A DNA stretch of 64,000 bases from Candidatus Danuiimicrobium aquiferis. Lineage in GTDB: Bacteria; Omnitrophota; Omnitrophia; Omnitrophales; Danuiimicrobiaceae. Below, in pieces: positions 10,170 to 51,660 of the stretch; the first letter of the stretch is position 1, and every line of letters begins with the position of its first letter. The notes below the pieces were generated by a model that was not told where the DNA came from, searched no databases, and saw only the letters and a program-made list of their open reading frames with translations. The stretch covers positions 85,952-149,951 of the forward strand of contig MHFR01000037.1 of NCBI GenBank assembly GCA_001804285.1. Reading direction: 5' to 3'. Both the position numbers and the translations under genes were made by a program.

Positions 10170-10243
10170 TTGTTAGTTCCGAGTTTAAACTTCAAAGTTT
10201 CGAGTTTGAAGTTTATAGAAGCGGTTTCATAAGCTCAAATTAG

Positions 10244-10438
10244 TGTCATTCCCGCGAAAGCGGGAATCCACAAATAGTGGTTTCCCCCCGGGCAAGCCCG
10301 GGGCACCTTCCAACATCTGGCCTCGCTGGGAATTTTTTCGTTCCCTGCTCGGCTCGCCCTTCGGGCGCCATCCCCCCCGGACAAGTCCGGGGAGCCCAAA
10401 GCGGCGTATGGATCCCCGCTTCCGCGGGGATGACAGCC
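10244..10438. repeat. cluster of family A palindromic repeats plus GC-rich hairpins
   Basis: tgtcattcccgcgaaagcgggaatcc at 10244-10270; the ccccgggcaagcccgggg hairpin; ggatccccgcttccgcggggatgacag at 10412-10438. This explains the overlapping spurious ORFs 10243..10704(+) and 10246..10452(-). Confidence 0.8.
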
Positions 10439-10494
10439 CTTATAAAAACCACTTCTCTTTTCCGGTTTACAGTCCTTCGCCATCATTTGCACCG

Positions 10495-10547
10495 AAAAAG
10501 GGGACAGGCAATCGCTCCAAGGGACCCATATGCCTGTCCCCTTTTTC
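10495..10547 (-). terminator. bidirectional rho-independent terminator (repeat family D hairpin) after pilS
   Basis: aaaaag-gggacaggca-[20 nt loop]-tgcctgtccc-ctttttc. An A-run lies upstream and a T-run downstream, so it could terminate on both strands. The same element occurs inside rimO (21642-21697), and a half-copy lies at 12001-12030. Confidence 0.55.
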
Positions 10548-10548
10548 T

Positions 10549-11787: not shown

Positions 11788-11868
11788 GCATACTTTCCTT
11801 TACTATTCAAAAAAAGGGACTGGCATGAATGGCGCTGATTTAACAACTTTTTCAGCAAATCCCTACCG

Positions 11869-11968
11869 CTGGATCCCCGCTTTCGCGGGGATGACACTTC
11901 AGACAAACTATTTAGCCTACTGAACTTCCATTCCTTTGCTTGTCATTCCCGCGGAAGCGGGAATCCAG
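11869..11968. repeat. family A palindromic repeats (two inverted copies)
   Basis: ggatccccgctttcgcggggatgacac ... tgtcattcccgcggaagcgggaatcc. Confidence 0.8.
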
Positions 11969-12030
11969 AAAAAACGCTGGATTTCCCTTAAGTCAATGCC
12001 ATTCGTGCCTGTCCCCTTTTTGTAATCATA

Positions 12031-13254: not shown

Positions 13255-13409
13255 AGGTATCCTTTTGAATTAAAAAAACATAATGACCAAACCCCAATGA
13301 CGCAAAGTATCACAAAATGACAAATTCCAATTTGAAATTTATCTTTTTGGGATTTCCTTGGTCATTGACACTTGGACATTGGAATTTCATCTTCATCCTG
13401 TTTTTGTTA

Positions 13410-15104: not shown

Positions 15105-15107
15105 GGT

Positions 15108-16847
15108 TTACCGTTCCAGTATTTCAATTTCTTGATCGCCGGCCGTCACACGCACCACTTCATCAAGCGACGTCTCGCCCGCCAACACTCGTTGGATTCC
15201 GCTCTCACGCAATGTCGTCATTCCTTTTCTACGGGCCGCTTTCTTAATATCCTCGGCGTTAGCACTTTTAAGGATTAATTCTTTGATTTCCGGCGTCAAC
15301 ACAAGGATCTCGGTAATCACCGTGCGGCCCGCGAAACCAAGCGACCGGCATTTTGCGCATCCTTCCGGATGATAAAGGGTCGGATGTTCTTTGATGTTAA
15401 TTTTAAAACGCTTCGCCGTTTCCTCATCCAGCGGCTTCGGAACCTTACACACAGGACACAACCTTCGAATCAGCCGCTGCGCCGTCACCATCAATATGGA
15501 TGACGTGATTAAAAATGGTTCAACCCCCATATTGATAATTCGAATAATGGAGCTCGTCGCATCGTTCGTATGAAGCGTGCTTAAAACGAGGTGCCCGGTC
15601 AGCGCCGCTTTGATCGCAATATCAATCGTCGTTTGGTCACGGATTTCTCCGATCAAAATAATGTCAGGGTCCTGACGTAAAATAGATCTGAGCGCGCCGG
15701 GGAATGTGAGCCCGATTTGTTCGCGGATATTTACTTGATTCGCGCCATCCATTTGATATTCAACCGGATCTTCAACCGTGGTAATATTTTTCTCTATCGA
15801 ATCAATGTGCTTTAAAACCGAATAAAGAGTGGTGGTCTTACCGCTGCCCGTCGGCCCGGTCACCAGAATCATCCCGTTCGGCTTAAACGCGCACGATTTA
15901 AGTTCTCCAAGCTCCTTCGCCGAAAAACCCAGTTTATCCAAATTGTGTGCCTGAGATTTTTTATCCAAAATACGAAGACACACTTTTTCACCAAAACAGG
16001 TCGGCAGAATCGAAACGCGAACATCCACTTCGTGGTTCTGTATCTTGACTTTGAAACGCCCATCCTGAGGAACCCGCCGCTCGGCAATATCCAATTGGCT
16101 CATCACTTTAAATCTTGAGACAAGAGCCGAGCCAATCGCCTTGGGTGGTGATTTAAGTTCTTCAAGAATCCCGTCTACGCGGCACCGGACTCTCAGGGAT
16201 GTTTCCCAAGGTTCGATAAAAAGGTCGCTCGCCTTTCGTTTAATCGCGTCGACAAGCAACGCATTCGCCACTTTAATGACCGGGGTTTCCTGAGCTTGTC
16301 TTAAGAGGTCGAGTGTTTTAACTTCTTCTTCCTGGTTTTTTGTTTCCTGGACAATTCGGATGAGATCCTCAATCGTTTCTTCCTGGTGAGGAAGAATGTC
16401 TACATCACTTGCGGGATAATACTTTTGAATGGCTTTCTGAATTTCACCGGCCAAGGCCACAACCGGTCGGATTCGCATATTAGTAATCGCTTTCAAATCA
16501 TCAATAATGGCAAGATCGTTCGGGATTTCCATGGCAACGGTTAAAGAATTATCATAGACCGAAATTGGCATGACTTTGTGTTTATTCACAAACGTCGGAG
16601 GGATCATCTGGATAACTTCTTCCGCAATTTTAAACAGATTCGGATTAACGGGCGGACACTTAAATTCATCGCTCAAAAACAGCATCGCGGCCTGAGCATC
16701 GATGAGTTTCAAATCAATCGCAATTTCGATTTGACTTTTCTTGGCCTTGTTTTTTTCATCCAGAACCAAAGGAAGATCTTCTTGCCGGATCAACTTCTTG
16801 GTGACCAGCTTTTTCAGTATCCCATCATTCCAATTATTCTCATCCAT
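15108..16847 (-). CDS. second GspE/PilB-family secretion ATPase (paralogue)
   Basis: 579 aa. N-terminal GSPII_E_N domain; Walker A GPTGSGKTTT; C-terminal CPVC...CAKC. Confidence 0.85.
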   Translation of the reverse strand: MDENNWNDGILKKLVTKKLIRQEDLPLVLDEKNKAKKSQIEIAIDLKLIDAQAAMLFLSDEFKCPPVNPNLFKIAEEVIQMIPPTFVNKHKVMPISVYDNSLTVAMEIPNDLAIIDDLKAITNMRIRPVVALAGEIQKAIQKYYPASDVDILPHQEETIEDLIRIVQETKNQEEEVKTLDLLRQAQETPVIKVANALLVDAIKRKASDLFIEPWETSLRVRCRVDGILEELKSPPKAIGSALVSRFKVMSQLDIAERRVPQDGRFKVKIQNHEVDVRVSILPTCFGEKVCLRILDKKSQAHNLDKLGFSAKELGELKSCAFKPNGMILVTGPTGSGKTTTLYSVLKHIDSIEKNITTVEDPVEYQMDGANQVNIREQIGLTFPGALRSILRQDPDIILIGEIRDQTTIDIAIKAALTGHLVLSTLHTNDATSSIIRIINMGVEPFLITSSILMVTAQRLIRRLCPVCKVPKPLDEETAKRFKINIKEHPTLYHPEGCAKCRSLGFAGRTVITEILVLTPEIKELILKSANAEDIKKAARRKGMTTLRESGIQRVLAGETSLDEVVRVTAGDQEIEILER

Positions 16848-17553: not shown

Positions 17554-17701
17554 TCCTCAAAAGGTTGGAAATGAATGAGTTATTTTCGTTTCGATCAAAG
17601 TATAGCTTGCCGGATTTGGCGTTGCAAGGGACGGGAGGACGATTTCGCCCGCTTTCGACATCTTAAATTGCTTTAGAAAGTGAGGGATTAGTCTACGTAC
17701 A

Positions 17702-17777
17702 CCCGGTACCGTTTCCAAAAGTGCCGGGTTCTGGTTTAACGGCATTAGAACCTGGCACTTTTGGAAACGGTACCGGA
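17702..17777. repeat. 76-bp near-perfect palindromic element, family B
   Basis: cccggtaccgtttccaaaagtgccgggttctggtt-taacggcatt-agaacctggcacttttggaaacggtaccgg. It overlaps the 3' end of thpR and the spurious ORF 17557..17745. Further copies lie at 20724-20800 and as a half-copy at 21604-21640. Confidence 0.85.
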
Positions 17778-18353
17778 ACTCGTTTTAAAAGCAAACGAAT
17801 GAATGGGCTCGTAAATTGCCCCTTGAGGAGTCAGTGTACTTTTCATCAAAGACAGAGAGTCAACTTTCTCGCAGGGAAAATCCTGAAACAACGTCGCCGG
17901 AAAATGAACCGAACCAGATCGCACATTGGCTTTTAGACGCGCAATCGTCATGTGCGGTTTGAAGGGCCGGTCCTCAACAGGGAATTTCATCTTTTTCAAG
18001 ACTTGCTCTATCCGCTTCTTAAGTTGGGTCAACATATCAATATTTCCGCCGACTCCGGCCCAAATCAAGCGCGGTTTGCGTTCATCGGGAAACGCCCCGA
18101 TGCTTTCTAATGTCACTTCAAAAGGATTAAATTCGGAAGCCACAGGATCGAGCGCTTGAATGACCTTGTTTTTTTCTTCTTCCGTTATATTCCCAAAAAA
18201 ATAAAGGGTTAAATGCCAGTTTTCGGCCGGAAGAAATCGGAAATTTTTATATTCCAATTTGATCTTTTGGATGCGCTGATCTGCCGATTGCTTGAATTCG
18301 GCAGAAAATGGAATCGAGAGAAATGCTCTTACGGTTTCTTGATCCATGTCCAA
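17745..18353 (-). CDS. thpR: RNA 2',3'-cyclic phosphodiesterase (2H phosphoesterase, ThpR/LigT)
   Basis: 202 aa with two H-x-T-x motifs (HLTLYF and HMTIARL). The last ~13 codons, KTSSGTVSKSARF* including the stop, are encoded by the family B repeat. Confidence 0.75.
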   Translation of the reverse strand: MDMDQETVRAFLSIPFSAEFKQSADQRIQKIKLEYKNFRFLPAENWHLTLYFFGNITEEEKNKVIQALDPVASEFNPFEVTLESIGAFPDERKPRLIWAGVGGNIDMLTQLKKRIEQVLKKMKFPVEDRPFKPHMTIARLKANVRSGSVHFPATLFQDFPCEKVDSLSLMKSTLTPQGAIYEPIHSFAFKTSSGTVSKSARF

Positions 18354-20552: not shown

Positions 20553-22085
20553 TTAAACTACCTTTTCAAAGTCTCCTGTTAAATCGTATTCCTGATAGTC
20601 CGTAACCTTGGCCCGGACGAACTCGCCCGGATATAATTTCACTTGTCGCGGAACCTTAACTCGAAATATTCCGTCAATCTCCGGGGCATCCATATATGAG
20701 CGACCGGTATACCACGCACCCGTACCCGGTACCGTTTCCAAAAGTGCCGGGTTCTGGTTCACCTGAGTTAGAACCTGGCACTTTTGGAAACGGTACCGGA
20801 AGTCATCCTCAATAAGGACTTCCATCGTTCTTCCCTTTAGTCGCCGGTTCTTCTCTCTCGATACTTTCTGCTGAAGAACCATCCCCTCACGATACCGCTC
20901 TTTCTTCACTTTTTCCGGCACTTGATTTTTCATCAGCGCTGCGGAAGTTCCCTCTTCGCGGGAATACGTAAATATTCCGAGCCTCTCAAATCTGACCTCA
21001 CTCGCAAACCGGAGTAGTTCTCTAAAATCTTTTTCCGTTTCGCCGGGAAAACCCACAATCAACGACGTCCGGATCGCAATATCAGGAATTCGCTTTCGAA
21101 GTTTTTCGATCAATTTCAAAATGCTCTTTTTCGTCGTTGTTCGTTTCATCCTTCTCAAAACGGTATCGCTGATATGTTGCACCGGAATATCGATATAATG
21201 ACAAACCTTTTCCAGTTTGGCAATGGCTTCGATCAATGAATCGTTTACATAAGAAGGGTACGCATACATCACCCGAATCCAACGCAGACGCGGGATTTGA
21301 TTAAGATCGTGCAGCAAATCTTGCAATAACAACTTGTGATGCGTATCATAACCGAAATACGTCGTATCCTGCCCCGTCAAAATAAGCTCCCGGGCGCCTT
21401 CTTCGACAAGCTGCGCAGCCTCCCTCAGAATATCATCTATGAAACGTGACCGATACTTGCCACGGTATGACGGAATCGTGCAAAACGAACATTGATGACT
21501 GCAACCTTCTGAAATTTTAATGTAGCGGCTAAAAGGACTCGTCAGAGATACTCGCTTCATTGTCGAATTGTAAATATAGCCCGGCGAGCGAGTTATATGC
21601 ATTCCCGGTACCATTTCCAAAAGTGCCGGGTTCTGATTTCGAAAAAAGGGGACAGGCAATCGCTTACGTTGCGTCATATGCCTGTCCCCTTTTTGCCGGG
21701 TCATCGCCTGTTCCAAAACTTCGTTAATCAGATGATAATCCCCTGTCCCGACAAACGCATCAATTTCCCTGAACTCTTTTTTCATAACCTTCGGATAACG
21801 CTGAGGAAGGCATCCGACAACAACAATAAATTTAACTTTTCCTGTTTGCTTGAGCTTAATCAAATCAAGGATTCGATCGATCGATTCCTGTTTTGCATCA
21901 TGTATGAAAGCACACGTGTTAATCAGCGCAATATCACATCTCCCAACCTGCCCGATAACTTCATACTTGCCCGAGTCAAGCGCACCAAGAATAATTTCAC
22001 TATCAACCAGTGTTTTGGGACACCCCAAAGAAATCATTCCGACTTTCATCCGTTTCGGATTTAAAATTGATTTTACCTGTTTCAT
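20553..22085 (-). CDS. rimO: ribosomal protein S12 methylthiotransferase RimO (MiaB-family radical SAM MTTase) carrying two in-frame repeat insertions
   Basis: N-terminal MTTase domain (MKVGMISLGCPK...NTCAF); radical SAM motif CSHQCSFC; C-terminal TRAM domain (DAPEIDGIFRVKV...EYDLTGDF). The likely start is the ATG at 22085 (MKQVKS...). The track's longer ORF to 22226 runs through the family E repeat. The inserts are at 21603-21692 and 20722-20800. Confidence 0.75.
   Translation of the reverse strand: MKQVKSILNPKRMKVGMISLGCPKTLVDSEIILGALDSGKYEVIGQVGRCDIALINTCAFIHDAKQESIDRILDLIKLKQTGKVKFIVVVGCLPQRYPKVMKKEFREIDAFVGTGDYHLINEVLEQAMTRQKGDRHMTQRKRLPVPFFRNQNPALLEMVPGMHITRSPGYIYNSTMKRVSLTSPFSRYIKISEGCSHQCSFCTIPSYRGKYRSRFIDDILREAAQLVEEGARELILTGQDTTYFGYDTHHKLLLQDLLHDLNQIPRLRWIRVMYAYPSYVNDSLIEAIAKLEKVCHYIDIPVQHISDTVLRRMKRTTTKKSILKLIEKLRKRIPDIAIRTSLIVGFPGETEKDFRELLRFASEVRFERLGIFTYSREEGTSAALMKNQVPEKVKKERYREGMVLQQKVSREKNRRLKGRTMEVLIEDDFRYRFQKCQVLTQVNQNPALLETVPGTGAWYTGRSYMDAPEIDGIFRVKVPRQVKLYPGEFVRAKVTDYQEYDLTGDFEKVV
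20724..20800. repeat. family B palindromic element inserted in-frame in the rimO TRAM-domain region
   Basis: cccggtaccgtttccaaaagtgccgggttctggttcacctgagttagaacctggcacttttggaaacggtaccgg. It is translated as RYRFQKCQVLTQVNQNPALLETVPGT. Confidence 0.8.
21604..21697. repeat. half family B element plus family D hairpin element inserted in-frame in the rimO interdomain linker
   Basis: cccggtaccatttccaaaagtgccgggttctgatttcg followed by aaaaaaggggacaggcaatcgcttacgttgcgtcatatgcctgtcccctttttg. It is translated as KGDRHMTQRKRLPVPFFRNQNPALLEMVPG. Confidence 0.8.
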
Positions 22086-34853: not shown

Positions 34854-34912
34854 TCCTCTTTGCGATTATCGTGTCTATTTAGCGTTTTGAAGTGGCGAAC
34901 ACGCCAGGTTTA

Positions 34913-34978
34913 TGTCATGCCCGCATGCTTAAAGCGAGCATCCACACTTTCTGGATTCCCGCTTTCGCGGGAATGACA
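34913..34978. repeat. family A compound palindromic repeat
   Basis: tgtcatgcccgcatgcttaaagcgagcatcc...ggattcccgctttcgcgggaatgacaaa. It is preceded by the conserved flank agcgttttgaagt, which also flanks the copies at 2144 and 51752. Confidence 0.85.
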
Positions 34979-35133: not shown

Positions 35134-38100
35134 TTAAGCTGCGGCTTCTATTAAACGCTGAATCTCCGGCAAAGATTCCAAGTATTGCCAAAATTCAACA
35201 TACGCAATTGACGGATAGCCGTTTTGCTCGCCCAACGAGAAGCCATGCGCCTGAGTCGTGAAATATTGCTTCAGCAAAAGGCCGTATTCATCCGCGCCGA
35301 TCTTAATTCCCTTCATATACGCCGATAGATGATTTAACGCTAAAATTAAAGAAAAAGCAGTGGTCACTTTAGAAAGATGATCAAGCTCCTGGAATCGCTC
35401 CCCATCACCGATTAAAACCAGCAGATATTTAAACTGGCTTGCCTGTTCAGCGGACCCAACCAAAATCGCGGCCCCGTGCTGGCGCCCGTCCATCATGGCA
35501 TTTTCCGCAAATTCCGAATCCGTGAACTTGATCACCCGGTAAAGTTGTGCTCTGGAAATCCCGCTTTCAATCACGGTCTCTGCAAGGCTACTTGCCTTCT
35601 TCCCTGAAATCGTAAGCCATGGTTTTCCGTCATCACGCTGAAATCGAATCAAAATTCTTGCAAAATCCGGAAATAGAGTTTTATCGGAAAATATGGGATC
35701 CTCCGATGAAAGATGCACAAATCCTTCGGGGGTGAATAGTAATGCTTCCGTCATCCTGAGCGCCAGCGAAGGATCCACGCCCGTCGATTCAGAAGAATTC
35801 GTCGCAAGCCCACTCAACCGATTCGCAAATATTTCTGTCACCGGCTCCGGTGTTTCCGCAAACGCTTCAGGAATCAGCGATCGAAGAATTTGATCCTTCC
35901 CGAATCGGCTCACCGCCTCCGGTGCCACAGTCCTTTCTGCCACTTCTTTCGCCACCGCGAGGACGCTTTCGAGAGAAACACCACGAATGTTGTCATTGCG
36001 AGGAGTCCCGCCAAAAGCGGGACGACGCGGCAATCCATACTCGGGGATTGCTTCGCCTTCGGCTCGCAATGACACCTCTTGTTGGCGTGCACGATACCCT
36101 TTTTCGCCCCCAATTTTTTCTTTTTTACTTTCCGCTTTGCGACCCTCCGAGCGGGCTTGCATCAGAAGATCATGTACTTGAGGCTGTGCCGTGATAAGGG
36201 CTGAGTTTACGGTTGGTTTATTGTCAACAATCTTCAGGCGGTTAAAATCCACAGGGAAGAAATCACGGGAATTTTCGTCCGTCACCTTTGCTCCAAGCGC
36301 AAATCCGACATGTGCGCCCCCAACCACATCCCAAAGGTTCGAGCCGCCATCCAAGTAGGCATCATAAACCCCAAAAGCGACCAACAGCGCGCTGATGATC
36401 CCAGATCCAGGACTTGGCTCTGCGTTGATCTTTTTCTTGGTCACCAATTGATAATGCCGCGCAGAAAACTTTTCAATGCCCGGAATAAATATTGCATTTA
36501 CTTCTGAAAGCGTCGTAGCCTTCGAAGCCGGAGGCATAAATTTCTGGCCGTTTAGAAATACACCTCCCGAATGGACTTCCACCATAACCGACTGGGCCCC
36601 ATTCATTTCGAATTCGGGCGCATAAATAACGGTATAAACCGGATTGCCCTTATCTAAAAGCGACAGGGTGAAACAATAATTTTTCCAACCGTTGATATAA
36701 GGCCGTGTTCCGTCAAGCGGATCAAGCACCCAAACAAACCTCGTTTTTTTTGCGCGTTCCAGAACCCCCATATCCCGCTCAAACATTTCTTCGCCAATCA
36801 CCAGAGAATCCGGAAGCAATGCAGACACCTCTTTCCTCACCATCTCTTCAATCACCGGATCCACGCCTATTGCAATATCCGAACCATCAAGTTTCCTCTG
36901 TGCTTCGATTTTACTGGCTTTCACCCGAAGCATAATTTTCCCGGCTTCTAACGCAAGGCGCTTCATCGTATGAAGGACTTCCCATTCCTCAAATGCCTTG
37001 GCAAAATTTTGAACACGCGGCTGGAATGGATCGGAACGTTTCGTCGCGATAGTGTCTATAAAATCTGCCGCAATTAGTAGCGTCAGGACGTCTTTCGCGT
37101 CAACATCCGGGTTGATTTGATCGACAAATTTTTGGAATACATCAAGCGACGGGACACCCTTAGACACACCCTCAACGAAATATAACGCGCCATGAAGCCG
37201 GACAGCTTCTATTAATGTTTCCCGATTCGCAAGCCCTTCGGCCAATAACGGATTACTTCTTAACAGATTTGTCGACGCGGCCTCATGATCCGGGTAAAGC
37301 ATTAACGTCCTGCCTTCTTCAATAATTACTTTCGCAGGAACAGTTATTTTGCCGATATCGTGCAGTAAAATAAATTCTTCAAAAAACCGACGGTTCGCAG
37401 GATTTGATAAAACGGCCCGGAATCTTTCGGGTATTTCACCGTACGACGAAGCATAATTCAGAACATCTACCATGGCCCGGAGATGATCCCGCAGTAGCGG
37501 CCCTTCCTGATGAACTTGGAGCGGATAATTTGGAATATTGAACCGGTCATGAAATTCCAAAGGAAGCCTCTCTCGAATCAGTGCCTCAATCGAATCCGCC
37601 CTCAATTCCGATCTCATAAAATCATACTGCGTATTCTCACCGCCAAATGTAGAAAGCCATTCATGTTCAAGGAGTAAATGCATATCGTTAACCGTATGCC
37701 AGTACGCGCGCGAAGGTTCTGCCACATTCAGATTCCAATCATCTTCAAATCCTTGGGCCGTTTTACGCACAAGCGCCAGCACTTTTGCCCGTTCTATTTC
37801 CCGAATCGCAGGATCGTCCGAATACGGAAGCTCCATAATCCGTCCGATTGCCATGTGCCCGAATTTCGGCCGTGATGTGATTCTATTTTCGCCGATGAGC
37901 CGCTTCGCCTCGCTATTTAATTGTTCCATAAAAGGATGAAAACGGTCTTCGGGGTCGGCAAAAAATCCGACAAACCCACCGTCGGCCGTTACTCCATAAC
38001 CAAGTTGAAATAAACGAAACACTTTTGTGCTTTCCGTATTCTGCTTGACCATGCCGCGAATCGTTTGCTTTTCATCTTCGTTGAGCGGAACAAATGTTTT

Positions 38101-41100
38101 CCGGTCTTTCCTCGAGAACAACTGCTTGTGCTCCTGAAAAACGCCCATGCTCAAATGCACATTATTCTCGCCAACTTCCCAATAACGGATTTGATCTTCA
38201 CGCCCCGGAAAAATCTTTTTCAGTTCATTTAAATAACGGTGAAACGACTGATGAGCTGCCGTAACAAATGGTAATCCTGGATCCAAACGGTGAATAACTG
38301 CAAACGCACCCGGTTCAAAATATTGCTGATGATAATTTCCGTCCTCCCCCTTCTTAAGCCCGCGCAGAATAATTCGATACCCCTTCCCGGGATATCGACG
38401 CATGGTACGTAATCCCTTCTGATACTTCTCATGATAAAGCCGTACCGGATCCGGCGTTTGCCTCACCTCAGCCCGCGCCAAAGGCGGCGAGAAAACGTGC
38501 GCATTCCGGCCCAGCAGTTCCTTCGCAATATCGCGAGTTTTATAAAATAAATTTTTTCCCGAAACACCAAGATCCGTTCGGGTTCTTGCTGCCGTTTCGG
38601 CACGGACAGGAATTTGAGCAATTGAATTTTCAATATCGACCTGTGCCGTTGCTATTCTGAAATTGGGGAGCAAACCTATCGCCATTTCGGCAGTTCTTGT
38701 AAAACTGTCCAGCCGGCCAAAATCGGTGACTGAATCAAAGTTGGTTTCTGTTAACTTGAAAAACGCATATTCTCCAAGTTGAGAAAGATATTGTTCCGCT
38801 CGATTTTGAATTTTCCCGGATTCTTTCAGTAATGTTGTCCGGTTCAATTCAATCAATACCGCCAAAGTTCTTGCAGTCAAAAGAGGGTCGAAATCAGCAG
38901 TTCCTGCGTTCCCGCTTGCTTCCGTTAAAAATTTCTCCGCCCGTTGATCAAAAAAATGAATTAATTGCTTATAAGCCGCCATCACTTCCGCGGGAATGAT
39001 GACGGGAATGGTATGCTTTCCTTTGTATGCAATATTTAAACGATAAATTTCTCCAATCGCAATCCCGGCAAGTTTAATTCGGTCGCTATCAGTCAAATCA
39101 CGACTATTGAAATCATGACGGTACGGCGCGTATCCGATGACTTCTTCAAGTTCAGGCCACACAGCCTGCTTGATCAGAGTTGCAGCCGCACGTTTCTGAA
39201 GCCATGGATTTTCAATGACAAGAACACGTTTTGGATAAAATTTTTCGGCATCGAGAATTTCCTTCGCATTTAGAACATTCTCGCCGGTGTTGGTAGATTT
39301 ATTTTCCACCGAATCAACTGAAACTCCGTTTTCTTCGAGTCGCGCTTTATAAAATTCAGATTCGGCAATCCGCTCGCCGTCCGGCGTATAATAATATCCG
39401 CCGAAATGCGCGCCATACATTCCGACCGTCATCACCGGCAAATCAGGCTGGTTCGTCTTCAATTTCTTAATCAGGATAGCTGTTTCTTCCGGGACCCGTT
39501 CGTCTTCCGTGCCAAGCACCATCACGAAATCAAAATCCTTTTGAATCAATTCTTCTTCATTAAGCGGAACGGAACCACGGTTCGCAGTTTTCACATCATA
39601 AAATTCCCTCGCCGCAAGAAAATTCGTGATCGGCTGGGTGAGCCGGTTCAACAGAAGTCTATCGGAATAAGACAGCCCTACCGACCTTGTCTCCGCGCGG
39701 ATTTTTGATTCTTTCGGAATCGTGATTGACCAATGCGTTGTGTAGCGCGGCTTCCCGATCAGTTGGCGAATCCATAGCTCCACCGCAACGAAATGATTGA
39801 TTAATATTCCCCGTATCAGAAAATTTCCCAAAGACCGTTTGAGCTCAAACAAGGTTCCTTCCCAATCCCGCAGCGGGTGGAAACGCTTCATGTACCATGC
39901 AACATAAAACACCCCATAATGAGCCCAGGCTGTTTTCTTTTTTCCCGGACTGAGCAAACTTTGCACCCAGCGGTCTCCCAACTCCCACCGGTATTCTTGT
40001 TTTAAATAGCCCACAAATGTCTCTGCAACAGAAAATGAAATCACCGCATCCGGATTTGCGAGAAGCCGCCAGAAATAATTTCTACCCTTTGTTTTCGCCT
40101 GCGGATCAGCAAATACGAATTTCAGGAAATAATCTTCGTTAATAGGAAGCGAAGGCAACGGCGGCAAAGAAAATAAATAGGCGAACATGCTCGTTCCGCG
40201 GACGCTATTCGGGTTAGAACCTTGTCCGACCGGTAAAACTCTTCTCGTCAACGTATGGCCCGGATGAATCTTATATGATGATCCAATCAACATCGGCACG
40301 CCGTTTTCTCGTGATTTCGTCAAAAGAAAATCGATATTGGACTCAATATTCCCCGGCGAGAATTCGATATCATCATCCATCATTCCGATAATCGAAGCGT
40401 TGATCGATTGCGCGTATTCCCGGATAGCATTTACCGCATTGGATTTTCCGGACAATTTCTCGCCCGGAAGCCGCCCGCCGAGCGGCATATGCATCACCGT
40501 AATCGGAACTTCAGGCGTTGAATATTGGCGCTGAAACTTGCGGACTTCTTCGAGATACGCTTTTTGATCCAAGCCGTTGATATTAATGACCAATCTCACC
40601 GGCCAATTCCGGTAAGGCCCGTCTTCCCGCTTCATCCGCGCAAGATCAGCTATGATCTTTTTAAAATGAAGAATCCGCTCGGCCGGATCACCGTGAATAT
40701 TCGCCGTCGGAACGCCAATCACAATCGATTGATGCTCCGCATGAATAAGTTCCTTTACTTTCCCCCGCAAATCTTGCGATTCGATATATTTATCCACATC
40801 GTCATAAATCGGCTCAAAATATTCTTTATATGCCCGCTGCTTCGGCGAATTCTCACCCGGCTCATAAACTCGCATCTCCACCGTCCGGGCATCTTCAGGC
40901 CCCGGCACAAAAAATCCGCCGTTCATATTTACACGATAGTCTAAAATGGGGACAGGTTCTGGTTCCATTGGCGTAGAACCTGTCCCCATTTGGGATGTAA
41001 TGTTACGCACTTCAGATCGAGGCAATGCAACTTCTCCATTTTGATATGGAACTCGAATCCCTTTTTCAATAGACGGTTTACCTGCAAGCTCTGGGGGAAA

Positions 41101-44100
41101 CGAATCTGAAATTTTTTCACGCGAGGTTTGCGGAATGACTATCAATGCGGAATGATTTTCTCTGGCGCGGAAATTCTCTGAGCTTTCTTCGGAAACGGGT
41201 ACGCCATTTTCATATTTCATGACGTCCACACTGTTGGCGAGCAAGAAAAGTTCCCGGATGGGATCCCCGCGTGTTTTTGTGACTTCCAACACCATCTTTT
41301 GAACTTCTTCGATCGTATAACCAATTTTTTTACGTTTATTCCCCGTTAAATTAATAGCCACTACGCGGCCGCTTTCAGTAATCCCGATTAAATTGTGCGG
41401 ATATTTTGATTTGATTAATTTGACTTGAAGTTTTTTCTGATGCGCCCCGCCGACAATCCGGTATTCCCCTTCGGCAAGTGGCCCGTCGCCAACTTTGGGC
41501 TTATAGCCTCGCGTCTTCAATGCTTTTTCTTCAATATCCGCGATCGAATATCGATTCGGCTCCTGATTTAAATATGGCGCTAAATCAAATTCCGCTTCGC
41601 CGTCATTCGCCAACACTTTTTTCAGCAAACGCCGGTCCACCGGCCGGCCGGGCACCGGCAAATCCACAAAAAATTCTTGAAATCCGATGGCTTGCCCGTA
41701 TTGCGGCTTACCCTGTTCGTTATAAGTAATAAACTGCGGAAGCACATATAAGTGGTAAAGATCATCAAATTGATTTGCGATATCCTGAACCGGCGTTGCC
41801 GCCCCATGATGAATGAGCCTCTGACCGAAAAAGGCAGTTTTAACCTCAGCTGCTCTGTTTTCTGTAGAGTCACCAATCAAAACCTTGACCTGCCCGGAGC
41901 CGTCAACTTTTACGAACCTTACATCTTCCGATGTAATTGCTCCGGTATTCCACGCAACCATCATGCTATATATCCTCTCAAAGACCGGCTCATCCTTCCG
42001 GTGATAAACTTGCTGACGCGCCCCGTCATAAATCACAAACCAGTCATTATGCAAATAATTGCCGTAAGAATAAACGGTCACCGCGCCATATTTCCCGCCA
42101 ACCTGATCCTCAACCGGCTTCAGCGCACTTTCTACATCAAACACCGTCGGCATTTCATTGGAATTCAATATGCGCCCGCCCAACATTCTCGACCCTCGCC
42201 CCCGGTTCCATACAAATTGTTCCGCCGCTTCTTCATTAAAAACCAGGGATAAATCAATCACTCGCGGACTGTAAAAATCGAATACAGCCGGATGTTCAGT
42301 CAATGTTTCCCGCACTTCAGAACGGGTTTGGCTGGCTGGCTGTGATTCGAACTGACCTTGCTCGTCAAACAACTCGAGAAGCGCGTCATTAAAAGCCTTC
42401 AGGTTTTTGGGAAGGCCGGACAAAACAGTCGGGAGATCAGCCGGGAAATCAGACCGGCGTTTTCTCAGCCCTTCGATCATCCCACTAAAAAGCTCCCGTA
42501 ACTTTGCCCTGTTTTCATCGTTTTTCGAAAATCCACCAAGCAAATCGGCGGCCGTTTTCCAATAAATCTCCGGAATTGCAGAAAGGCCGTTTTGACCGTT
42601 ATAAATCGGCCGGACATCTCCGGAGCGAGTAAAAATAATGAGCGCGAACATCTCGCGCAACATATTAAGTTTAACTGTTTTTCTTCCAAGCCCGTAAATG
42701 TCGTGGTCCAGTGCATAACTAACCCCTTCGATTTTTCCATCTCTTATTTCATCGGCATAAGAAACAGCAAATGTTCCCTTCGTCCGAAATTGCTGGACGG
42801 GGTCGTGCATGTACGCAACAACCAATGGATCGTTATTACTTAAACCAAGCTCCTGGTGAACTTGCTTTAATATCGGTTTAGTCTTCTCAAAATATTCTGT
42901 AATGATTGACGTTTCGGTTTCAAGAATAATATCTTTTTCATCAATCGGAACCGGACGCGGGTTTCCTTTTTGGTCAACCCTGTTACGCGCCATATGCAGA
43001 ATAATCTCTTTGATAATTTCTGCCTCCCTCCGTTTAAGCGCCATATCGAGTTTGCCAGCCTTCCTCAGAGTTTCAAGCCGTTCGATCTGGCTTTCATGCG
43101 TAATCACCTCATCATCCGAAATATGAACCGGAATTCTTTCCAAAACCGCATTTCGAATCAAAGACAACGTCCCTTTGCCCAAACCGCCTGAAATGAGAAT
43201 CTTTGAAATTTTATGAGCATTATATAATTCCACCGCTTCCTGAAAATTATCCAGGAAATCATTGCCGCAGATGAGAAGTACATGGGCTTTTAACTCCTGG
43301 CGTTTTTTGTCCCGGCTGTTCAGCAACTCTTTAAGTTTTAGCAAACTCAGTGTATCTCGCAGAAATACAATTCTATCCCGAAGACGCTTCTCTTCCCTTT
43401 GGTAATATCTTTTCACCCGGTCGACATGCGCCATGGATTCTTGCCGGCGTAAAATTTCAAAAACCTGCTCAAGCTCTTTTTCATACTGTGCGACGGCTTC
43501 TTCAGGTACCGATTTCCAACCCTCGCTCAGTCCGTCTTCAGCTTTCTTAAACAACCTGTTTCGATTGAATGTTTCCCCGACATATGATGGGTCCGAGTCT
43601 TTAAACAAGGCAACTACCTCATCCGTGCCAATGTCAAAAATTCGTTGAGGGACCCCCAAAATTTTTAAATAATTCTGGGCCGCCTCAAGCATCATACGAG
43701 CGACTCTTCGCTGAAGAGGCGCAATCACATGATGGCCGTCTTCACGAAGGAGAAACTCCTGATGAGACAAAGACATGGTTTCTTTAAGCTGCGGATATTC
43801 GGTGAGGGCTCTTCTCGCCGTCTTCATTTTCGCGTTCTGGTTCTCGATTACCTTCTTGATTTTTTCAAGCGCCAGTCCAAGGCCCGCATCCACTTCTCGT
43901 GCGGAAACCATCCATGGTTTTCGAGTCCCTGCGCGTGCAACCCTGACGAATCCCCGCATCAATAAATTCAAGTTCTCGTCTTTTGTTAACGATTGAAGGC
44001 TTAATTCCTCTTCCTTCGTTTTCTCAAGATGTTTCATGCACAAGGCCGCAAGAAATTCTTCCGTCACGCTTTTGCCTTCTAAAATACGGCTTCTGATGTC

Positions 44101-47100
44101 CTCCAGATAAAAAAGGGTATCTGAAGGGTCATCGAGATGTTCGCTCGTCTTTTTATATTTCGTAGACCACTTTTCAACGATGTCATAAATCTGCGGATAG
44201 TGTTCCCTCAATTTCTCCGCCAGTTCGGCAGGATCTTTATGGCGCTCGAACATTTCACTTACCGCCGGACTGCTCCACACCCGCTCAATCAAAGCATAAA
44301 ATTCCTTATCTTTCTGCCGCGAAAGCTTGAGAATAAGCCCCTTCGGAATATCTTTTCTGTTTTCGTCGATACTGAACTCGGCATGAAGACCGACCGCCGC
44401 TTCATCTTTCATAATTTCCCGGAAATTTCTGTCAATATATCTTGCCTGATCGAAAGCAAAAATATGATTCACCGTCACATCAAGCCAGAAACCAATATGC
44501 ATCCAGACAAACGCATCGATGATTCCGTCAACCATCGTCTCAACATTGTCCTTCGTAATCATACCGTTCATTCCGGATATCACCTCACCAAACGTCTTGA
44601 GCCCGGTCCACCGCGCATTAAAAAGCTCTTGCAAATCGTGTGCTCTAAGATTCCGCACATTTTTAACGAAATAGAAAATGCTGTGTGGATCGTTCCGGGT
44701 TATCCGTTGATATAAATACATCCGTACCGTGTCAGGTGGTTCATCGGGATTGTGAGTTTTATATGTGGAACTGCTTTTAAAAACGCGTTCCTGGGTTTCT
44801 AATTTCCACGGCGTTCGTCCGACAAAGAATCTCTCGAAAACATCCGTCAGACGGTCCCATGCCTGCCAATAGTAGTCGAGCTCAAACCACCGGTAAACAC
44901 TCGATCGCTTGCGCAAATGTCCGTCTTCCGGAAAGTCTTGATAGACTTCGGAGCGACGTATATGCATCATGCTCCAACGTTCAAAAATTTCATGGGGTTC
45001 CATTTCCCTGAGAACCTCTTCCGGAGTCATTTTTTCATCGGATCTGTAAATCCCGACCGTCCGCCTTTCTTCCACAATCGGGCCCTTGCCGAGATAAATC
45101 GTCCGTCTTCCGGAATCAAACGTCACCATTTGACCGTCATACGCAGCAAGCTTTTCAAAAGCATCCGTTGCCCCCACCAGACACGGAATCTGCAGCGGGA
45201 GTGAATTCTGCGCGGCATGCGATGTGCTGCCCCCGTCAGTTGTGATAACACCGGCCAGCTTCGCAAACACATCGTTAAACTCATTGTTGGTGTGATGCGC
45301 GACTAAAATGACGCCCGGTCTTACTTGGGCCGCCAGATGCTTATCCTGAGTTTCGCTGCCGCCTTTCTGCCCTTTCAATATCTGAAGCTGCGCATACACG
45401 GCACCGTGAGTCGCCGCAGTTGCATTAGAATCCAGAACATGTCTTCTCATGGACGGAACTTGGCTTTCATCAACTGTCCGCACGACGAAAACGGCTTGAT
45501 TTTCCTCACGTTTGGCTTCCGAAATGATTTTCGCGCGCGCCTGAACAATAAAAATTTCTCCATTCTCATCCACCGCAAATTCTATATCGATATTGTTTGC
45601 TAATCCTCGAGCGCGGTAATGCCTGCAAATCAACTTGGTCAAGCGCGCCACCTCAAGAATTTCGGCATCCAACAAGCTCGGAAGGTCAGCTTCTTCATCC
45701 GAAAGGTCCACCGTTTGAATATCACCGCCCGGTTTCGTAGTGACCTTTTGCTTCTTCCTCTGGATTTTCTTTTCTAAAATCGCATCCGCCATCGGACCAA
45801 CCTTCCATTTATCAACGGGAATCTTCCCGTCCACAATCCCTTCGCCGATTCCATGAACCGCATCGATTTTGATAATCGGCCGGTTAATCGAATCATCGGG
45901 ATCCACCGAAAATGCCACGCCGGAGCTGCGGGGCTCGATAAACTTTTGAAGCAGAACCGCCATCCCTGCCTTGGCGACACTGAGGCCAGCCCTCCTCCGG
46001 ATGGTCACAAATCCATCGTCAAAGAGACTGGCCCAAACCACTTTAATTGATTTCAACGTTTGATTAACCGATAGTTGGTACAATTTGGTTTTCGCCTGTC
46101 CGGCAGCCGCAAAATTTTTGAGGTCTTCAACCGTCGCGGAACTGCGCACGGCGATTTTTCCGCCCAATCGCTTAAACTCTCTGGCAATTTGATTTCTAAG
46201 TGGTTTCGGGAACTCCAATTTTCCGATCCGGTCCCTGATCTGTTGGCAAAGCATGCGGATTTCGTCTTCATCCTCCGTTTTTTCAAGACGTTCGACTAAC
46301 TCTTTGATCACCGGATCGCCGAAAACCATCCGCTCAAAAGCGTGCGTCGTCAACACAGACGAATCAGGCACTTGAAGCACCGGCACTTTCCCAGAATTCA
46401 TCAGTTGACGAAGAATATGAGTGTTTGCGCCTTTTCCGCCCGCAACCTCAACCGACGCGGCGGCCTCGTCATCGACATTTAGGATATCAGGAAATATCTC
46501 TTCCCAAATTGCTGAATCACTGACATACGGACCTGTGAGATCTAAAGCAAACGCCAATGGATTCGCCTGAAATTCGCTTTCAATCTCCTGCCTGGTTTTA
46601 AAAACCATCTCATCGGAATCAATCGTTTTAAAAATATTCGAGCCACCATCAACCAACTGTGCTTCCGCATCCCGCCGATCGCGCTCTGCCTGCTCCATTT
46701 TTTTCTTTAAGAAGGCTGCATCTTCTCCCGTTAACTGGTAGACAAAAAGCCTTTCTTCGTTCTTATCAAAAACCGGATAGATTCCGGGGATATTGGTTTC
46801 CCGTCTGATCTGACCGGCGATTTCCCGAATTTTTTCTCGCACATTTTTCCCATCAACCGAAAGCACACATAACGATTTTTTTCTGGCGTCCCAATCCATC
46901 AAAACCCCATCTGCCCGGTATTGATCTTGATGCGCCGTTTGGTATGCGACAAGTTTTTTTTCTTCTTTCTCGTTCAACGCATAAAAATCGTAACTCGCCA
47001 GCCATCCGGAACGCACTTTCCCAGAATCAATTTTATGTAATTTTTCAAACGGGATTCTCAGTCCGGTCTCATTTTCAACCGCAGCCGCAACCATCGCCCG

Positions 47101-50100
47101 AAGATCAAAAACAGGATGAATCCACGGAATCCCTACCTTTTTTCTGATTTCTTCAGCAGCTGCCTTCACTTGGTCCGCAGTCACCTTCCCATCAATCGAA
47201 ACAAGGTGTAATGATCTTTTTTCCTGATCCCATACCAGATCGATTCCATCAGCATGAAACGCAGCCTTATTCGTTTCATAATATTCATGAAGCCTCTGCT
47301 CTTCCGCATCGGATAAAGTATAAAAATAATAGACGGGATCCCCCGGAGCATTTTCGCCCAAGCGCACATCTTTGAGTCGCGCGAGCGGAATCTTGGCGCC
47401 CGTCTCTTTCTCAATAGCATCAGCGGCTGCGGTTAATACAGTTTCTTTATTCACTTTAGCGTTGGCAGATACCGTCAGTTTTCCCGCAAAAAGCCTTTTA
47501 TACGGTCCGCGTTTTTGGAAGAGAATTTTCTTGCCGGATTGATCAATCAAGAAGATTTGCGCAGACGGAACCCGTCGCGGTGATTTAGATGGTCCGCGAG
47601 TCCCACCGACAAATTTATTCATTACCTGGGCCATATACAATAGAGACAAGAATGGGTCATCGGAGTCAACCCCCACAGACAATACGGAACGGATATCTTT
47701 CAAAGCCTCATCAATTAACTTTCTTGAGTGGCTACGCGCCGCCTCATCCCATGGCTTTTCTTGCGAAAAGATCTCTCTAACCTCCATTATTTTTCTTACC
47801 ACCTCTTCACGATTGACTCGGGCAGCCGCAACAGATGATTTCAATTTATCCACCACGGCTTTATCCGCCAATAGCGGCTCAAGAAGGTCATCCGTCAATT
47901 TCACATTCCATTGCTGGACGCCGTCCTTAAAAACATCTTCTTTTATTACATTCTCTCCTCTCGCAGCTTGCAAAAGCTCTTCCAGCGTAAGTTCATAAAT
48001 TGCCCAGGTTTCTCCATTTCCTGCATGGCGCGTTTGTTCCCGTTCAATCCAGCGTTTAAATTTCTCGCGAGTCATCGAACGTTTTTTTTCTTCCAGCCAC
48101 CGGCCATATTCAAGGGCCTTTTCAACTTCTTTCGAAGTCGCAAAATACATATAATTGGTAATTTTTTCTCGATTTGGCGGATCCGTTCGGTCCGAAGAAT
48201 ATCCGTTTTCTGCGCCAATCAGTTTCCATGTCCCTTCAAGGACTCCGTCCTTACTCATACCGGCCTCTTCGGCCAATTCATCAATCGCAGTCCGATAAAT
48301 CGTCTCTCCGGCCTTTACATGCCCGCCAAAGATCGTCACATCTAACGGTTTGACTTTATTGTGAACTCGACGCTGAACAAGAATCGTTCCTTTGGGCGTA
48401 AAGACAATCGCATTCGCGCTATGGTGCAATAGCCGGTATTCGTGAGCGATCCTCGCGTCAATCACACCGATGGTTTTAATTTCACCGGCAGCCCCTTCGG
48501 CGATAATATTCAGATCTTCACCGCTCAGTGTAATCTTCCCATCTTGAACTCTTTTGAGAATGCTTTCGATCATATCCGGCGTAATTCCCGATCCGGGAAA
48601 TCCGGCCAAATGTTCGAGCTTGTACTTTAATGTTGCTGACGGTGGAACGAGTAAAGACGGCCAATCGTATAAGCCTCTGTGATGCAATCCGCTGTTATAA
48701 AACAGATGCGCCAAAATCATCCACGTCGTTGCGCTCACACCAACCATGAAGGAAAGTGCAGGGCCAATCGAAAACGTCGCTGGAAAAAAAACGAAGTAAG
48801 GCAGATATAAAAACAGGCCCAGAACAAACAATCGTCCCCACATCGAAACACGTTCATTGAAGCGATAAAACTTTTTAAATACCGGAGGTCCGGCTTTGTG
48901 AGGCATATAAACACCGTTCCAATGAAGAACAGCATAAAACACATTGCTGACCAACCCGGCTATCACACTCGAAACCAAAATGCCATGAGCACCGGCTAAA
49001 TAAAAAACCAATAACGTATAAAGGCCTGTCACGGCTACCGTTCGCGCAAATGGCGCAACTTTCAGAGCCGTACCTTCATCTACCTTAAACTTCTCCCAAA
49101 CTGTCCGTACAGGTGAAACATTCAAAGTACTCTTGCGCGTTTCTGCCAAAAACTCCTCGGCACTGCTGCCATTATCGCGCGCTTCGGCCCTTGCAGCGGC
49201 ATTCTTTTCCCTCTGCCGCAACCGCAAGGACTCCTGTACGCTTCGATTCCCCAAAACGGGGACAGGTTCTGGTTTTATTGTCTTAGAACCTGTCCCCATT
49301 TTGGGTGCAAGGTTGCGCGCTTCGGCACGTTCTGATGTTTCAGAAGAAACATCAGAAGTACTGCCTTCGGCTGCCCTCGCTCGCTGCATTCCTGGACCTC
49401 GCAAGAGCACAGGAGCATAAGGCACAGGCGCGGAAGCTTTCATCTCTACTTGTGTCCCTGTGCGCGTGTGTTCTTGTGTACTCGTCTGGCGCATGTTGAA
49501 AAACATGCTGTCATGCAATTTAAGCGCCGGGCCGTCAGGCTGTGCAGAAGTCTTGAGTGTCGCCTGCATGTCTTGGATTCCCGTTTGAATATCATCCGCT
49601 AAATACTGTGCTTCAGCGCGGCCAATCTTTGCAGCTGTTTCGTGCATCGGATTAATGATTTGCGCTGGTGCAACGTTTGACGCGGGAGAAAGAAAAACAG
49701 GTTTTAACGTCATCCGGTTCACATAAAGTTGACTGTCCTGAATTTCATTGATCTTCGGCATAATCGACAAATACGAAAAACCTTTTTCCTTCGCAATCGC
49801 TTCGATTCCTTCTTGATGGAAACCGCCGGTAACGAGAACGGCCTTGTCCTGCTTGGTTTGTTTTAACGTACTCAAAACGTTTTCGAAGATAACTTGTTCT
49901 CGTTCATTGGCGGTTTGATAGAATTGAAGGCAGCGGCGGAAGAGGTTTTGTACAGGCCCCTCAATGCCCCTCTTTGTCATTCCCGAAAGCTGTTCTCGGG
50001 AATCTCCTAACAATGGATTCCCGCTAAAAACATGCGGGAATGACAAACGCCCTTGATTGTTTCGTTGTTCTGATTTTACGAGGAATGACACAGTCCCTTG

Positions 50101-51660: not shown

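Follow-up and report, generated by a model that had tools for sequence, protein, structure and literature searches.

We analysed a 64,000-nucleotide stretch (the window) of Candidatus Danuiimicrobium aquiferis ('Omnitrophica bacterium RIFCSPLOWO2_12_FULL_44_17'), a member of the phylum Omnitrophota in the Planctomycetes-Verrucomicrobia-Chlamydiae (PVC) group, and concentrated on one giant minus-strand gene, the last of three consecutive giant genes. The maximal uninterrupted open reading frame (ORF) covers 35134..51705 and encodes 5523 amino acids (aa) from a TTG at 51705. The likely start is the ATG at 51660 (M16 of the maximal ORF), which has a Shine-Dalgarno-like GAGGA sequence 10 nt upstream, and the 5508 aa counted from it equal the product length in public gene calls for the same gene. 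Residue numbers refer throughout to the maximal 5523-aa ORF counted from TTG 51705. A sequence-only reading of this DNA had described one polypeptide at 35134-51660 in which unrelated enzyme modules are strung together after an export signal. This was seen correctly, its coordinates are those of the probable true gene, and all the motifs that it quoted lie where it had placed them (GGKGAN at aa 1756-1761, GGSTSHAA at 2158-2165, LLHDIGK at 4780-4786, WVLDPLDGT at 4992-5000, and DDD at 3777-3779). We found that the protein belongs to a family with a fixed layout, in which a signal peptide and a hydrolase head are followed by variable cargo separated by a short motif and by an amphipathic tail ending in [AS]-A (Table 1).

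Table 1. Features of the giant gene and its surroundings, with positions in the window and residues of the maximal ORF
Feature	Residues (aa)	Window positions	Strand	Support or remark
Giant gene, whole, from likely ATG		35134..51660	minus	5508-aa product, stop included
Signal-peptide-like N-terminus, MKQLLFR / AIAVLLSVTFSVTSAV / SYA-QN	16-42	51580..51660	minus	hydropathy
Head module, predicted TIKI/TraB/ChaN/erythromycin-esterase fold with large helical insert	43-~690	49636..51579	minus	
Cluster of in-frame palindromic repeat elements in head module	~279-366	50607..50869 (50832-50869, 50759-50803, 50607-50692)	minus	
Further in-frame palindromic element in head	~553-578	49973-50047	minus	
Junction RAEAR	793-797	49315..49329	minus	followed by 80-nt hairpin element 49244-49323
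Junction RAEAR	839-843	49177..49191	minus	
Hydrophobic block, four transmembrane helices (two hairpins) by eye	886-1003	48697..49050	minus	hydropathy
NUDIX (PF00293)	1094-1198	48112..48426	minus	Pfam 43.6 bits, cut-off 21.1
Second, degenerate Nudix-like unit and tandem duplicate	~1382-1648	46762..47562	minus	NCBIfam NF041653 E=6.6e-5 (aa 1382-1446)
PPDK_N (PF01326), ATP-grasp nucleotide-binding domain	1753-2069	45499..46449	minus	Pfam 206.8 bits
PEP-utilizers (PF00391), phosphohistidine swivel	2129-2198	45112..45321	minus	Pfam 53.3 bits; His2163 in GGSTSHAA
Stretch including the first 'DUF218' of the sequence-only reading (~2800-3127)	2200-3127	42325..45108	minus	no Pfam match
Junction RSEVR	3128-3132	42310..42324	minus	equivalent offset in P0007 and P0008
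Module with borderline NAGPA (phosphodiester glycosidase)-like segment at aa 3392-3472	3133-3562	41020..42309	minus	Pfam 24.8 bits, cut-off 25
Junction RSEVR	3563-3567	41005..41019	minus	followed by 80-nt hairpin element 40934-41013
GT-A-like module, DDD at 3777-3779	3568-4002	39700..41004	minus	weak: Glycos_transf_2 (PF00535) 14.9 bits, cut-off 23.3, E=0.026
Junction RAETR	4003-4007	39685..39699	minus	P0038 alignment begins exactly at the motif in both proteins
DUF218 (PF02698) module, Pfam match 4059-4202	4008-4410	38476..39684	minus	45.4 bits, cut-off 27.6
Junction RAEVR	4411-4415	38461..38475	minus	
Orphan module	4416-4697	37615..38460	minus	no Pfam or NCBIfam match
Junction RSELR	4698-4702	37600..37614	minus	
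HD-like module, LLHDIGK at 4780-4786	4703-4912	36970..37599	minus	weak: Pfam HD (PF01966) 17.2 bits, cut-off 22, E=0.0065
Inositol_P (PF00459) domain	4909-5169	36199..36981	minus	Pfam 97.5 bits, cut-off 27
Junction variant RSEGR	5185-5189	36139..36153	minus	directly after IMPase domain
C-terminal orphan module	5190-5523	35137..36138	minus	in-frame palindromic element at 35991-36074
Conserved tail, putative amphipathic helix ending ...LIEAAA-COOH		35137..35202	minus	
Paralogous giant gene, 3695 aa		51881..62968	minus	same head (aa 5-527), 7 junction motifs, ends ...SISA, 4 Cys
Third giant gene, 3' end ('263-aa ORF' at window edge)		63176..64000	minus	12,008 aa in public record
Type IV pilus or type II secretion system (T2SS) cluster		8165-16847	minus	20-27 kb downstream of giant genes

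The giant ORF is one genuine gene. The contig is of metagenomic origin, several repeat elements are inserted within the ORF and a large part of it has no detectable homologue, as might be expected of a mis-assembly, a mis-called fusion of adjacent genes or a pseudogene. However, a stop-free frame of 16.5 kb is not obtainable by chance, domains from end to end share this one frame, every repeat insertion keeps it, and the head-to-tail layout is common to thousands of relatives. Thirteen contigs, drawn from several independent assemblies and sequencing runs, encode the adjacent giant protein with an identical sequence, and the studied gene adjoins that neighbour, with a product of 5500-5508 aa, in four of the six places shown. 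Promoter-like and terminator-like matches within the ORF are no more frequent than chance, and the idea that internal promoters or terminators split it was rejected on these counts. An assembly or gene-calling artefact is effectively excluded, at a likelihood that we regard as vanishingly small.

The part of the protein shared across the family is its head, the catalytic-looking first ~650 aa, which the sequence-only reading had overlooked. A query with aa 16-5000 gave 156 matches, all of them proteins of 2.8-8 kaa (thousand aa), which align over aa ~50-700 and almost nowhere else. In 15 relatives an organism is named, and each time it is one of the Omnitrophota (15/15). The cargo of the 120 relatives listed includes phosphoglucose isomerase (PGI), triosephosphate isomerase (TIM), phosphofructokinase (PFK), glycogen phosphorylase, glutamate dehydrogenase, kinases, methyltransferases, and WD40 and TPR repeats. 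The theme of nucleotide-derived phosphoesters proposed earlier for the modules is not a property of the system, since these relatives carry different cargo and share only the N-terminal ~650 aa. An exhaustive profile search found the head in 9,958 clusters (50% identity) at E <=1e-3; among the best 150 of the 9,958, its start lies no further in than residue ~75 and mostly around aa 40, in proteins of ~0.6 to >7 kaa. The ~1000-aa members consist of signal peptide, head, ~450 residues and tail, with essentially no transmembrane (TM) segment.

An alignment of 19 members showed an invariant His, Glu-Gly, Phe-Tyr...Arg and Gly-Gly-Phe-His in the head. The AlphaFold (AF2) model built from this alignment reached a predicted local distance difference test score (pLDDT) of 74 and a predicted template-modelling score (pTM) of 0.69, with 312 residues at a pLDDT of at least 90, and its low-confidence loops coincide with the sites of repeat-element insertion. 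The putative catalytic residues are D90, H92, E120, R602, and H630. H92, E120, R602, and H630 (in GGFH630) are 100% conserved in about 246 members, a figure that is biased upward, as the head itself served as the query by which these members were collected. The published catalytic set of RRSP, an effector of MARTX toxins, consists of Glu-3900/His-3902, Glu-3930, Arg-4001, and His-4030, and Bcr135 has His-85/Glu-113 (PMC6254334). The RRSP set maps to D90/H92, E120, R602, and H630 in the same order, with spacings of 28 and 28 versus 28 and 29 in RRSP, and the His-Glu spacing is 28 in Bcr135 also. The modelled structure and this residue set argue for a TIKI/erythromycin-esterase hydrolase fold, an assignment that is well supported.

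Direct searches with the head gave no significant match in the PDB by Foldseek, where long-helix noise from the ~400-aa helical insert topped the list and the highest probabilities, also not significant, were those of BcR135 and HopBA1. A PDB sequence-profile search with the head alignment found no meaningful match, and the curated Pfam and NCBIfam models gave no superfamily match on the native head. When the helical insert was removed (10 constructs), ChaN (PF04187) was matched in two constructs (E=0.011 and 0.036) and erythromycin esterase (PF05139) in one (E=0.081), all below threshold. The head differs from known members of the TIKI superfamily in falling below threshold with every curated Pfam and NCBIfam model of that superfamily (best E=0.011, in trimmed constructs), and from TIKI, TraB-PrgY-GumN, ChaN and erythromycin-esterase proteins in its large insert and its fusion to kilobases of cargo.

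Beyond the head, the family is marked by the motif R-[SA]-E-(V/L/A/M)-R. The pattern R[AS]E[VAL]R occurs 690 times in the 120 relatives, compared with 9.7 copies expected from shuffles, and the commonest 5-mers in this set are RSEVR, RSELR, RSEAR, and RSEMR. Two giant genes of the window, the studied one and its 3695-aa neighbour, hold 6 and 7 copies against an expectation of 0.04; a looser form of the pattern was found zero times in the 10,418 aa of ordinary ORFs of the window. The median spacing of the copies, 264 aa, is domain-sized. Cargo of each length class holds ~2 of them per 1000 aa, and only 6 of 1454 fall within the head domain, where roughly 200 would lie if they were uniformly distributed. 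In relatives, motifs bracket PGI and a receiver domain and directly precede TIM and PFK. Modules shared by different giant proteins carry the motif at equivalent boundaries, and all copies in the studied protein lie between recognisable modules. Linker-like sequence surrounds the motif: small residues precede it and Glu-rich sequence follows. These flanks are enriched in A, S, P, G, and E, and Leu is below background adjacent to the motif. The codons used for Arg, Ser, Ala, Glu, and Val differ between copies, which indicates selection on the peptide. For the same reason, a DNA-level repeat or recombination scar was rejected as the origin of the motif.

An 80-nt hairpin element (GGGGACAGGTTCTGG...AGAACCTGTCCCC, translated as ...MGTGS..PEPVP..) directly follows the motifs at aa 793 and 3563, and a further copy lies at 63849-63928 in the 12,008-aa gene. 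The similarity between the two copies at these motifs reaches into the E-[VA]-R-N codons. They look like secondary insertions into a permissive linker; the alternative is some link between element and motif.

At the other end of the protein, Ala is the final residue in 200 of 257 family sequences (about 78%), and most of the remainder are probably truncated at contig ends. Of the 200 that end in Ala, 94% have Ala or Ser at position -2, ~90% have a hydrophobic residue or Thr at -5, and 90% have a hydrophobic residue at -15; further hydrophobic positions lie at -11, -18/-19, and -22. This periodicity describes a predicted amphipathic helix of ~22 residues ending in [AS]-A. The three giant genes of the window conform, ending in ...EAAA, ...SISA, and ...MRSA. 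A profile of the C-terminal half of the ~1000-aa members matched the extreme C-terminus of a 4799-aa relative (P0026) and neither giant protein of the window; judging from this alignment, the cargo would sit between conserved ends, at least in the P0026 lineage. A BLAST comparison of the C-terminal 370 aa of the studied protein with other family C-termini found no similarity beyond the short tail. The giant proteins are also depleted in cysteine about 8-10-fold relative to neighbouring housekeeping proteins: Cys makes up 0.16% of the studied protein, 0.11% of its neighbour and 0.12% of the relatives, compared with 1.13% in 25 ordinary ORFs of the window.

Topology was read from hydropathy. The N-terminal signal and membrane block described in the sequence-only reading are both present, with four helices by eye where four to five had been claimed. 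A hydrophobic core comparable to that of the N-terminus is found in 211 of 249 family members. The positions of TM segments are not conserved among relatives, and no hydrophobic segment follows the head in 18 of 119. The loop between TM helices 2 and 3 (aa 931-958) carries a charge of about +5.

We assigned the cargo modules with Pfam at curated cut-offs and with a second, module-by-module scan at a permissive threshold (E up to 5). NUDIX, PPDK_N, PEP-utilizers, one DUF218, and Inositol_P all pass the curated cut-offs, while three of the eight domain calls made in the sequence-only reading proved weak or unsupported. A NAGPA-like segment and a duplicated degenerate Nudix-like unit had escaped it. 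The Nudix box (aa 1127-1149, 48259-48327) reads G-HVKAG-E-TIYRTAI-D-E-L-A-E-E-A-G-M. It keeps all Glu and Gly positions and has Asp, in DELAEE, in place of the Arg of REx2EE. The second Nudix-like region is degenerate and has no catalytic Glu pair; a ~105-aa unit is duplicated in tandem at aa ~1430-1648 (window 46606-47583; 38% identity, E=1e-24).

The combination of ATP-grasp domain and swivel that follows had been likened to phosphoenolpyruvate (PEP) synthase and rifampicin phosphotransferase (RPH) stripped of the PEP-binding barrel, and our results bear this out. The order of ATP-grasp and phosphohistidine swivel, with the His retained, is that of PEP synthase/PPDK and RPH, and among solved structures the PEP synthases and rifampicin phosphotransferases come closest. 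In contrast to PEP synthase/PPDK, there is no PEP/pyruvate-binding barrel (the TIM barrel PF02896 gave no Pfam match), and in contrast to RPH there is no recognisable rifampicin-binding domain. Scores are far under every equivalog cut-off: the PEP synthase NCBIfam model was matched only at positions 7-471 of 798 (244 bits, cut-off 598), and the rifamycin phosphotransferase model NF041857 only at positions 3-328 of 864 (190 bits, cut-off 999). The swivel signature also deviates after the His (HAAQNS).

Two DUF218 domains had been proposed. The second stands, and cassettes homologous to its module occur in the relatives P0202, P0038, P0023, and P0063. The first (aa ~2800-3132) gave no Pfam match at E up to 5, and hhalign of this segment against the profile of the second returned a probability of only 4.5%. 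The module that carries the NAGPA-like segment is common to the relatives P0007, P0008, P0021, and P0023. For the proposed GT-A and HD domains, the motifs DDD and LLHDIGK are present, the latter flanked by His and Asp residues, and the profile scores of both fall below cut-off. The module read as IMPase/CysQ-like belongs to the IMPase superfamily, as judged by a full set of metal-site motifs (IGEEMF, WVLDPLDGT with its DPxDGT, and LWDVVGG) and by IMPase/FBPase and SuhB as the nearest solved structures. The CysQ subfamily did not hold up, as the HisN and CysQ (TIGR01331) models both scored 64.9 bits, both far below cut-off (228.8 for CysQ). A single-sequence AlphaFold model of the HD-like and IMPase stretch had a pLDDT of 37.8 and was unusable. 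No homologues were found with a query made of aa 4416-4912 and 5186-5523, a weak negative given that this search did not retrieve the protein itself either.

The neighbouring giant genes share the features described above. In the 3695-aa paralogue, no Pfam or NCBIfam match was found, and its ~3,100 aa of cargo are completely dark. The C-terminal 3263 aa of the 12,008-aa product have 5 junction motifs and 2 Cys and end in ...QMRSA. Downstream lie the housekeeping genes nusA, infB, a DHH phosphoesterase gene, truB, ribF, pnp, dut, ftsK, miaB, pgsA/pgpA, cinA, and ligT. The pilus or T2SS cluster encodes a pilin-like protein with an N_methyl motif, a PilS/PilR-like pair of histidine kinase and sigma-54 response regulator, two GspE/PilB-like ATPases, a protein like GspF and another with an MshEN domain. 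Type I secretion genes, which were sought because of the conserved C-terminal tail, were not found in the window. Further away, two adjacent PMT_2/ArnT-like membrane glycosyltransferases, one of them fused to TPR (3830-7443, minus strand), adjoin a B12-binding radical SAM enzyme and a methyltransferase and may form an envelope glycosylation locus.

The studied protein belongs to a known class, the multi-enzyme giant membrane proteins of Omnitrophota, and its architecture is not new in kind. West-Roberts et al. 2023 (10.1101/2023.11.21.568195) describe 'Archaeovorins', Omnitrophota giants with glycosyltransferases, methyltransferases, NUDIX, and PPDK_N, unannotated N-terminal regions and T2SS genes close by, and speculate that C39 or S8 peptidase domains might cut such proteins. 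Nielsen & Lui 2026 (10.64898/2026.06.07.730766) sort proteins of at least 10 kaa into three classes, the first being 'multi-enzyme metabolic clusters', find a signal peptide or TM helices in 94% and leave function open. The function of Omnitrophota giant proteins has been called poorly understood (Seymour et al. 2023). The studied protein resembles these giants in phylum, in carrying many unrelated enzyme Pfams per chain (for the class as a whole these include NUDIX, PPDK_N, glycosyltransferase, HD, and methyltransferase), in its signal peptide and TM segments and in having T2SS or pilus genes nearby. It differs in size: the published catalogues start at 10,000 or 30,000 aa, whereas the protein has 5,508 aa and its family spans 1-8 kaa. 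At 12,008 aa, the product of the adjacent giant gene would clear the 10-kaa limit. Pfam detected no SecA_DEAD, C39, S8 or HEAT domain in the studied protein. The earlier suggestion that either a multi-effector protein or a nucleotide-processing assembly line would be new is thus overtaken by these two descriptions of multi-enzyme Omnitrophota giants with NUDIX, PPDK_N, glycosyltransferase, and HD. What we add is the grammar of the family, that is, the TIKI-fold head, the R-S-E-x-R junctions, the [AS]-A tail and the depletion of cysteine. The accessible text of both papers makes no mention of a TIKI-fold head, an R-S-E-x-R motif, an [AS]-A tail or cysteine depletion, and the searchable literature does not mention the junction motif, a TIKI link or the word 'polyprotein' in connection with Omnitrophota.

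The sequence-only reading had also drawn an analogy to MARTX toxins. In logic the two are alike: both are very large proteins with a string of unrelated enzymes, and MARTX effectors are released by proteolysis between modules. The analogy gains from the junction motif, from the low number of cysteines and from the head, which shares the TIKI fold and the same His/Glu/Arg/His set with RRSP. It does not extend to the toxin machinery, as Pfam reported no RTX-repeat or cysteine-protease-domain family in the studied protein. Moreover, the protein has an N-terminal Sec-type signal, whereas substrates of type I secretion systems have none; the TIKI domain is one cargo effector in MARTX and the conserved head here; the cargo consists of metabolic-type enzymes, not known toxins; and processing is a candidate only. 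The studied protein is not a MARTX toxin.

The fixed order of the parts, the cysteine depletion, the existence of relatives without TM segments and the nearby secretion genes together lead us to read the protein as an exported cargo polyprotein whose junction motifs are candidate processing sites, a reading to which we give roughly even odds (about 0.5). From it we infer export, topology, proteolysis at the motif, a protease, catalysis by the modules and delivery to another cell, along the following lines. The chain would be exported by way of its signal peptide, held at the cell envelope or released from it, and cut at the junction motifs into individual enzymes, which would then act outside the producer cytoplasm, possibly on or in an attached host or prey cell. 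In that sense, the processing logic would be comparable to that of MARTX toxins or viral polyproteins. Cleavage at the junction motif specifically has, as we see it, about one chance in three. A fuller version, in which the proteins are secreted self-processing polyproteins throughout the phylum, the TIKI head cuts R-S-E-x-R in cis or on paralogues, the enzymes are freed outside the producer, probably into or onto a host or prey, and the [AS]-A helix is a secretion or docking signal, strikes us as distinctly doubtful. The head could be the processing enzyme, and the link is weak. The TIKI superfamily comprises peptidases, esterases and one haem-binding protein, and so is not made up of peptidases alone. 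Conservation of the head is equally high in the ~1000-aa members, where junction motifs are few or absent, so cutting its own chain need not be the main job of the head.

These last two points weigh against an exported, processed chain, and others do so as well. Some of its modules may be inactive, given the missing Arg of the Nudix box and the departure of the swivel from its signature beyond the His. The motif might have a structural role and no other. The substrates of the ATP-grasp dikinase, Nudix, and IMPase cargo, namely ATP, nucleotides and sugar phosphates, are metabolites of the cytoplasm, and by the positive-inside rule the +5 loop at aa 931-958 would be cytoplasmic, in conflict with a topology in which all four helices leave the cargo outside. 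Both of these observations would suit a different arrangement, in which an uncleaved chain is anchored in the inner membrane by its N-terminal hydrophobic segment and TM block, displays its enzymes on the cytoplasmic face for the cell's own metabolism and uses the motif as a favoured linker or helix-capping sequence; so would the glycolytic enzymes and nucleotide kinases of relatives and the resemblance of the motif flanks to ordinary flexible linkers. Such a cytoplasmic scaffold is hard to square with the classical signal-peptide-like N-terminus ahead of the head. The proteins ChaN, Tiki, and TraB/PrgY, to which the head is structurally related, are located outside the cytoplasm, and with four TM helices the cargo would share the side of the membrane on which the head lies. 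The absence of any TM segment after the signal peptide, both in the 18 relatives noted above and in essentially all minimal members, also argues against anchoring, the cysteine depletion relative to housekeeping proteins of the same genome would be hard to explain, and a plain linker would not be expected to keep an exact 5-mer at ~70-fold enrichment across thousands of divergent sequences. We consider this scaffold unlikely, if worth keeping in view.

An exported giant could instead stay whole at the envelope as a coat or adhesion protein, with modules that bind or act on host glycans and with motif and tail serving assembly or docking. A role of this kind has been proposed for a 39,678-aa protein of Velamenicoccus archaeovorus, and published proposals include a coat or prey cell-wall digestion. 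The GT-A-like, NAGPA-like, and DUF218 modules come from envelope- or glycan-related families, pilus or T2SS genes lie nearby, the proteins are Cys-poor with a signal peptide, and the catalytic motifs of several modules are degenerate, as in the Nudix box without Arg and the two degenerate Nudix-like units. On the other side, Pfam found no adhesin-type repeats, lectin or dockerin domains in the studied protein, and its best-conserved modules are nucleotide or phosphate enzymes with metal or phosphohistidine residues intact. We regard an intact surface coat as improbable.

Giant genes account for much of the small Omnitrophota genomes, and published hypotheses on their role range from digestion of prey cell walls to cytoplasmic metabolism. 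If the features described here hold, what has been an uninterpretable list of domains becomes a testable design with a mutable catalytic head, a defined junction and a deletable terminal signal, and the five-residue junction could be sought by proteomics and would allow the proteins to be divided into modules before their structures are predicted. For annotators, the motif is a practical aid in segmenting thousands of dark giant proteins. Were the modules released into host cells, this would be a new route by which a parasite or predator delivers a set of metabolic enzymes through one gene product; were the system self-processing, it would be the equivalent in these bacteria of viral polyproteins and of MARTX toxins, and would have a recognisable sequence grammar of its own.

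The repeat elements of the window deserve separate mention. The insertions in the head module coincide with dips in homologue coverage and with low-pLDDT loops. Repeats within the ORF translate to loops such as VIPAQAGIHGS, VIARSEVTKQS...ARNDD, and SFPHVFSGNP, which relatives do not have; some relatives, for example P0016, have similar inserts at the same linker. Palindromic repeats, which fall into several families, also lie between genes, at 2216, 8722, 10244, 10398, 11859, 11941, 34941, and 63039. In their occurrence as short hairpin repeats both in spacers and in frame inside genes, they are like Rickettsia palindromic elements (RPEs) and repeats of the repetitive extragenic palindromic (REP) or miniature inverted-repeat transposable element (MITE) kind; their sequences and phylum differ from those of RPEs, and the likeness is one of form. 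Hairpin repeats of 81 nt, 93-97% identical, lie within the ligT-like and miaB-like ORFs (17701-17781, 20724-20804, and 21604-21639), so that the giant genes may not be the sole targets of in-frame insertion; alternatively, if the ligT-like ORF does not really begin at its TTG, the first of these copies could precede the gene. The 64-aa ORF that public records place between the 12,008-aa and 3695-aa genes (spacer 62969-63175) is a translation of repeat elements (VIPACFKRGSTDSWIPAFAGMTK) and probably does not represent a gene. Finally, a 61-nt repeat with the hairpin TGTCATGCCCGCATG..AAGCGGGCATCCA occupies spacers just upstream of three gene starts (2117-2177, 34886-34946, and 51725-51785) and may be a terminator or regulatory element; its copy at 51725-51785 precedes the start of the studied giant gene.

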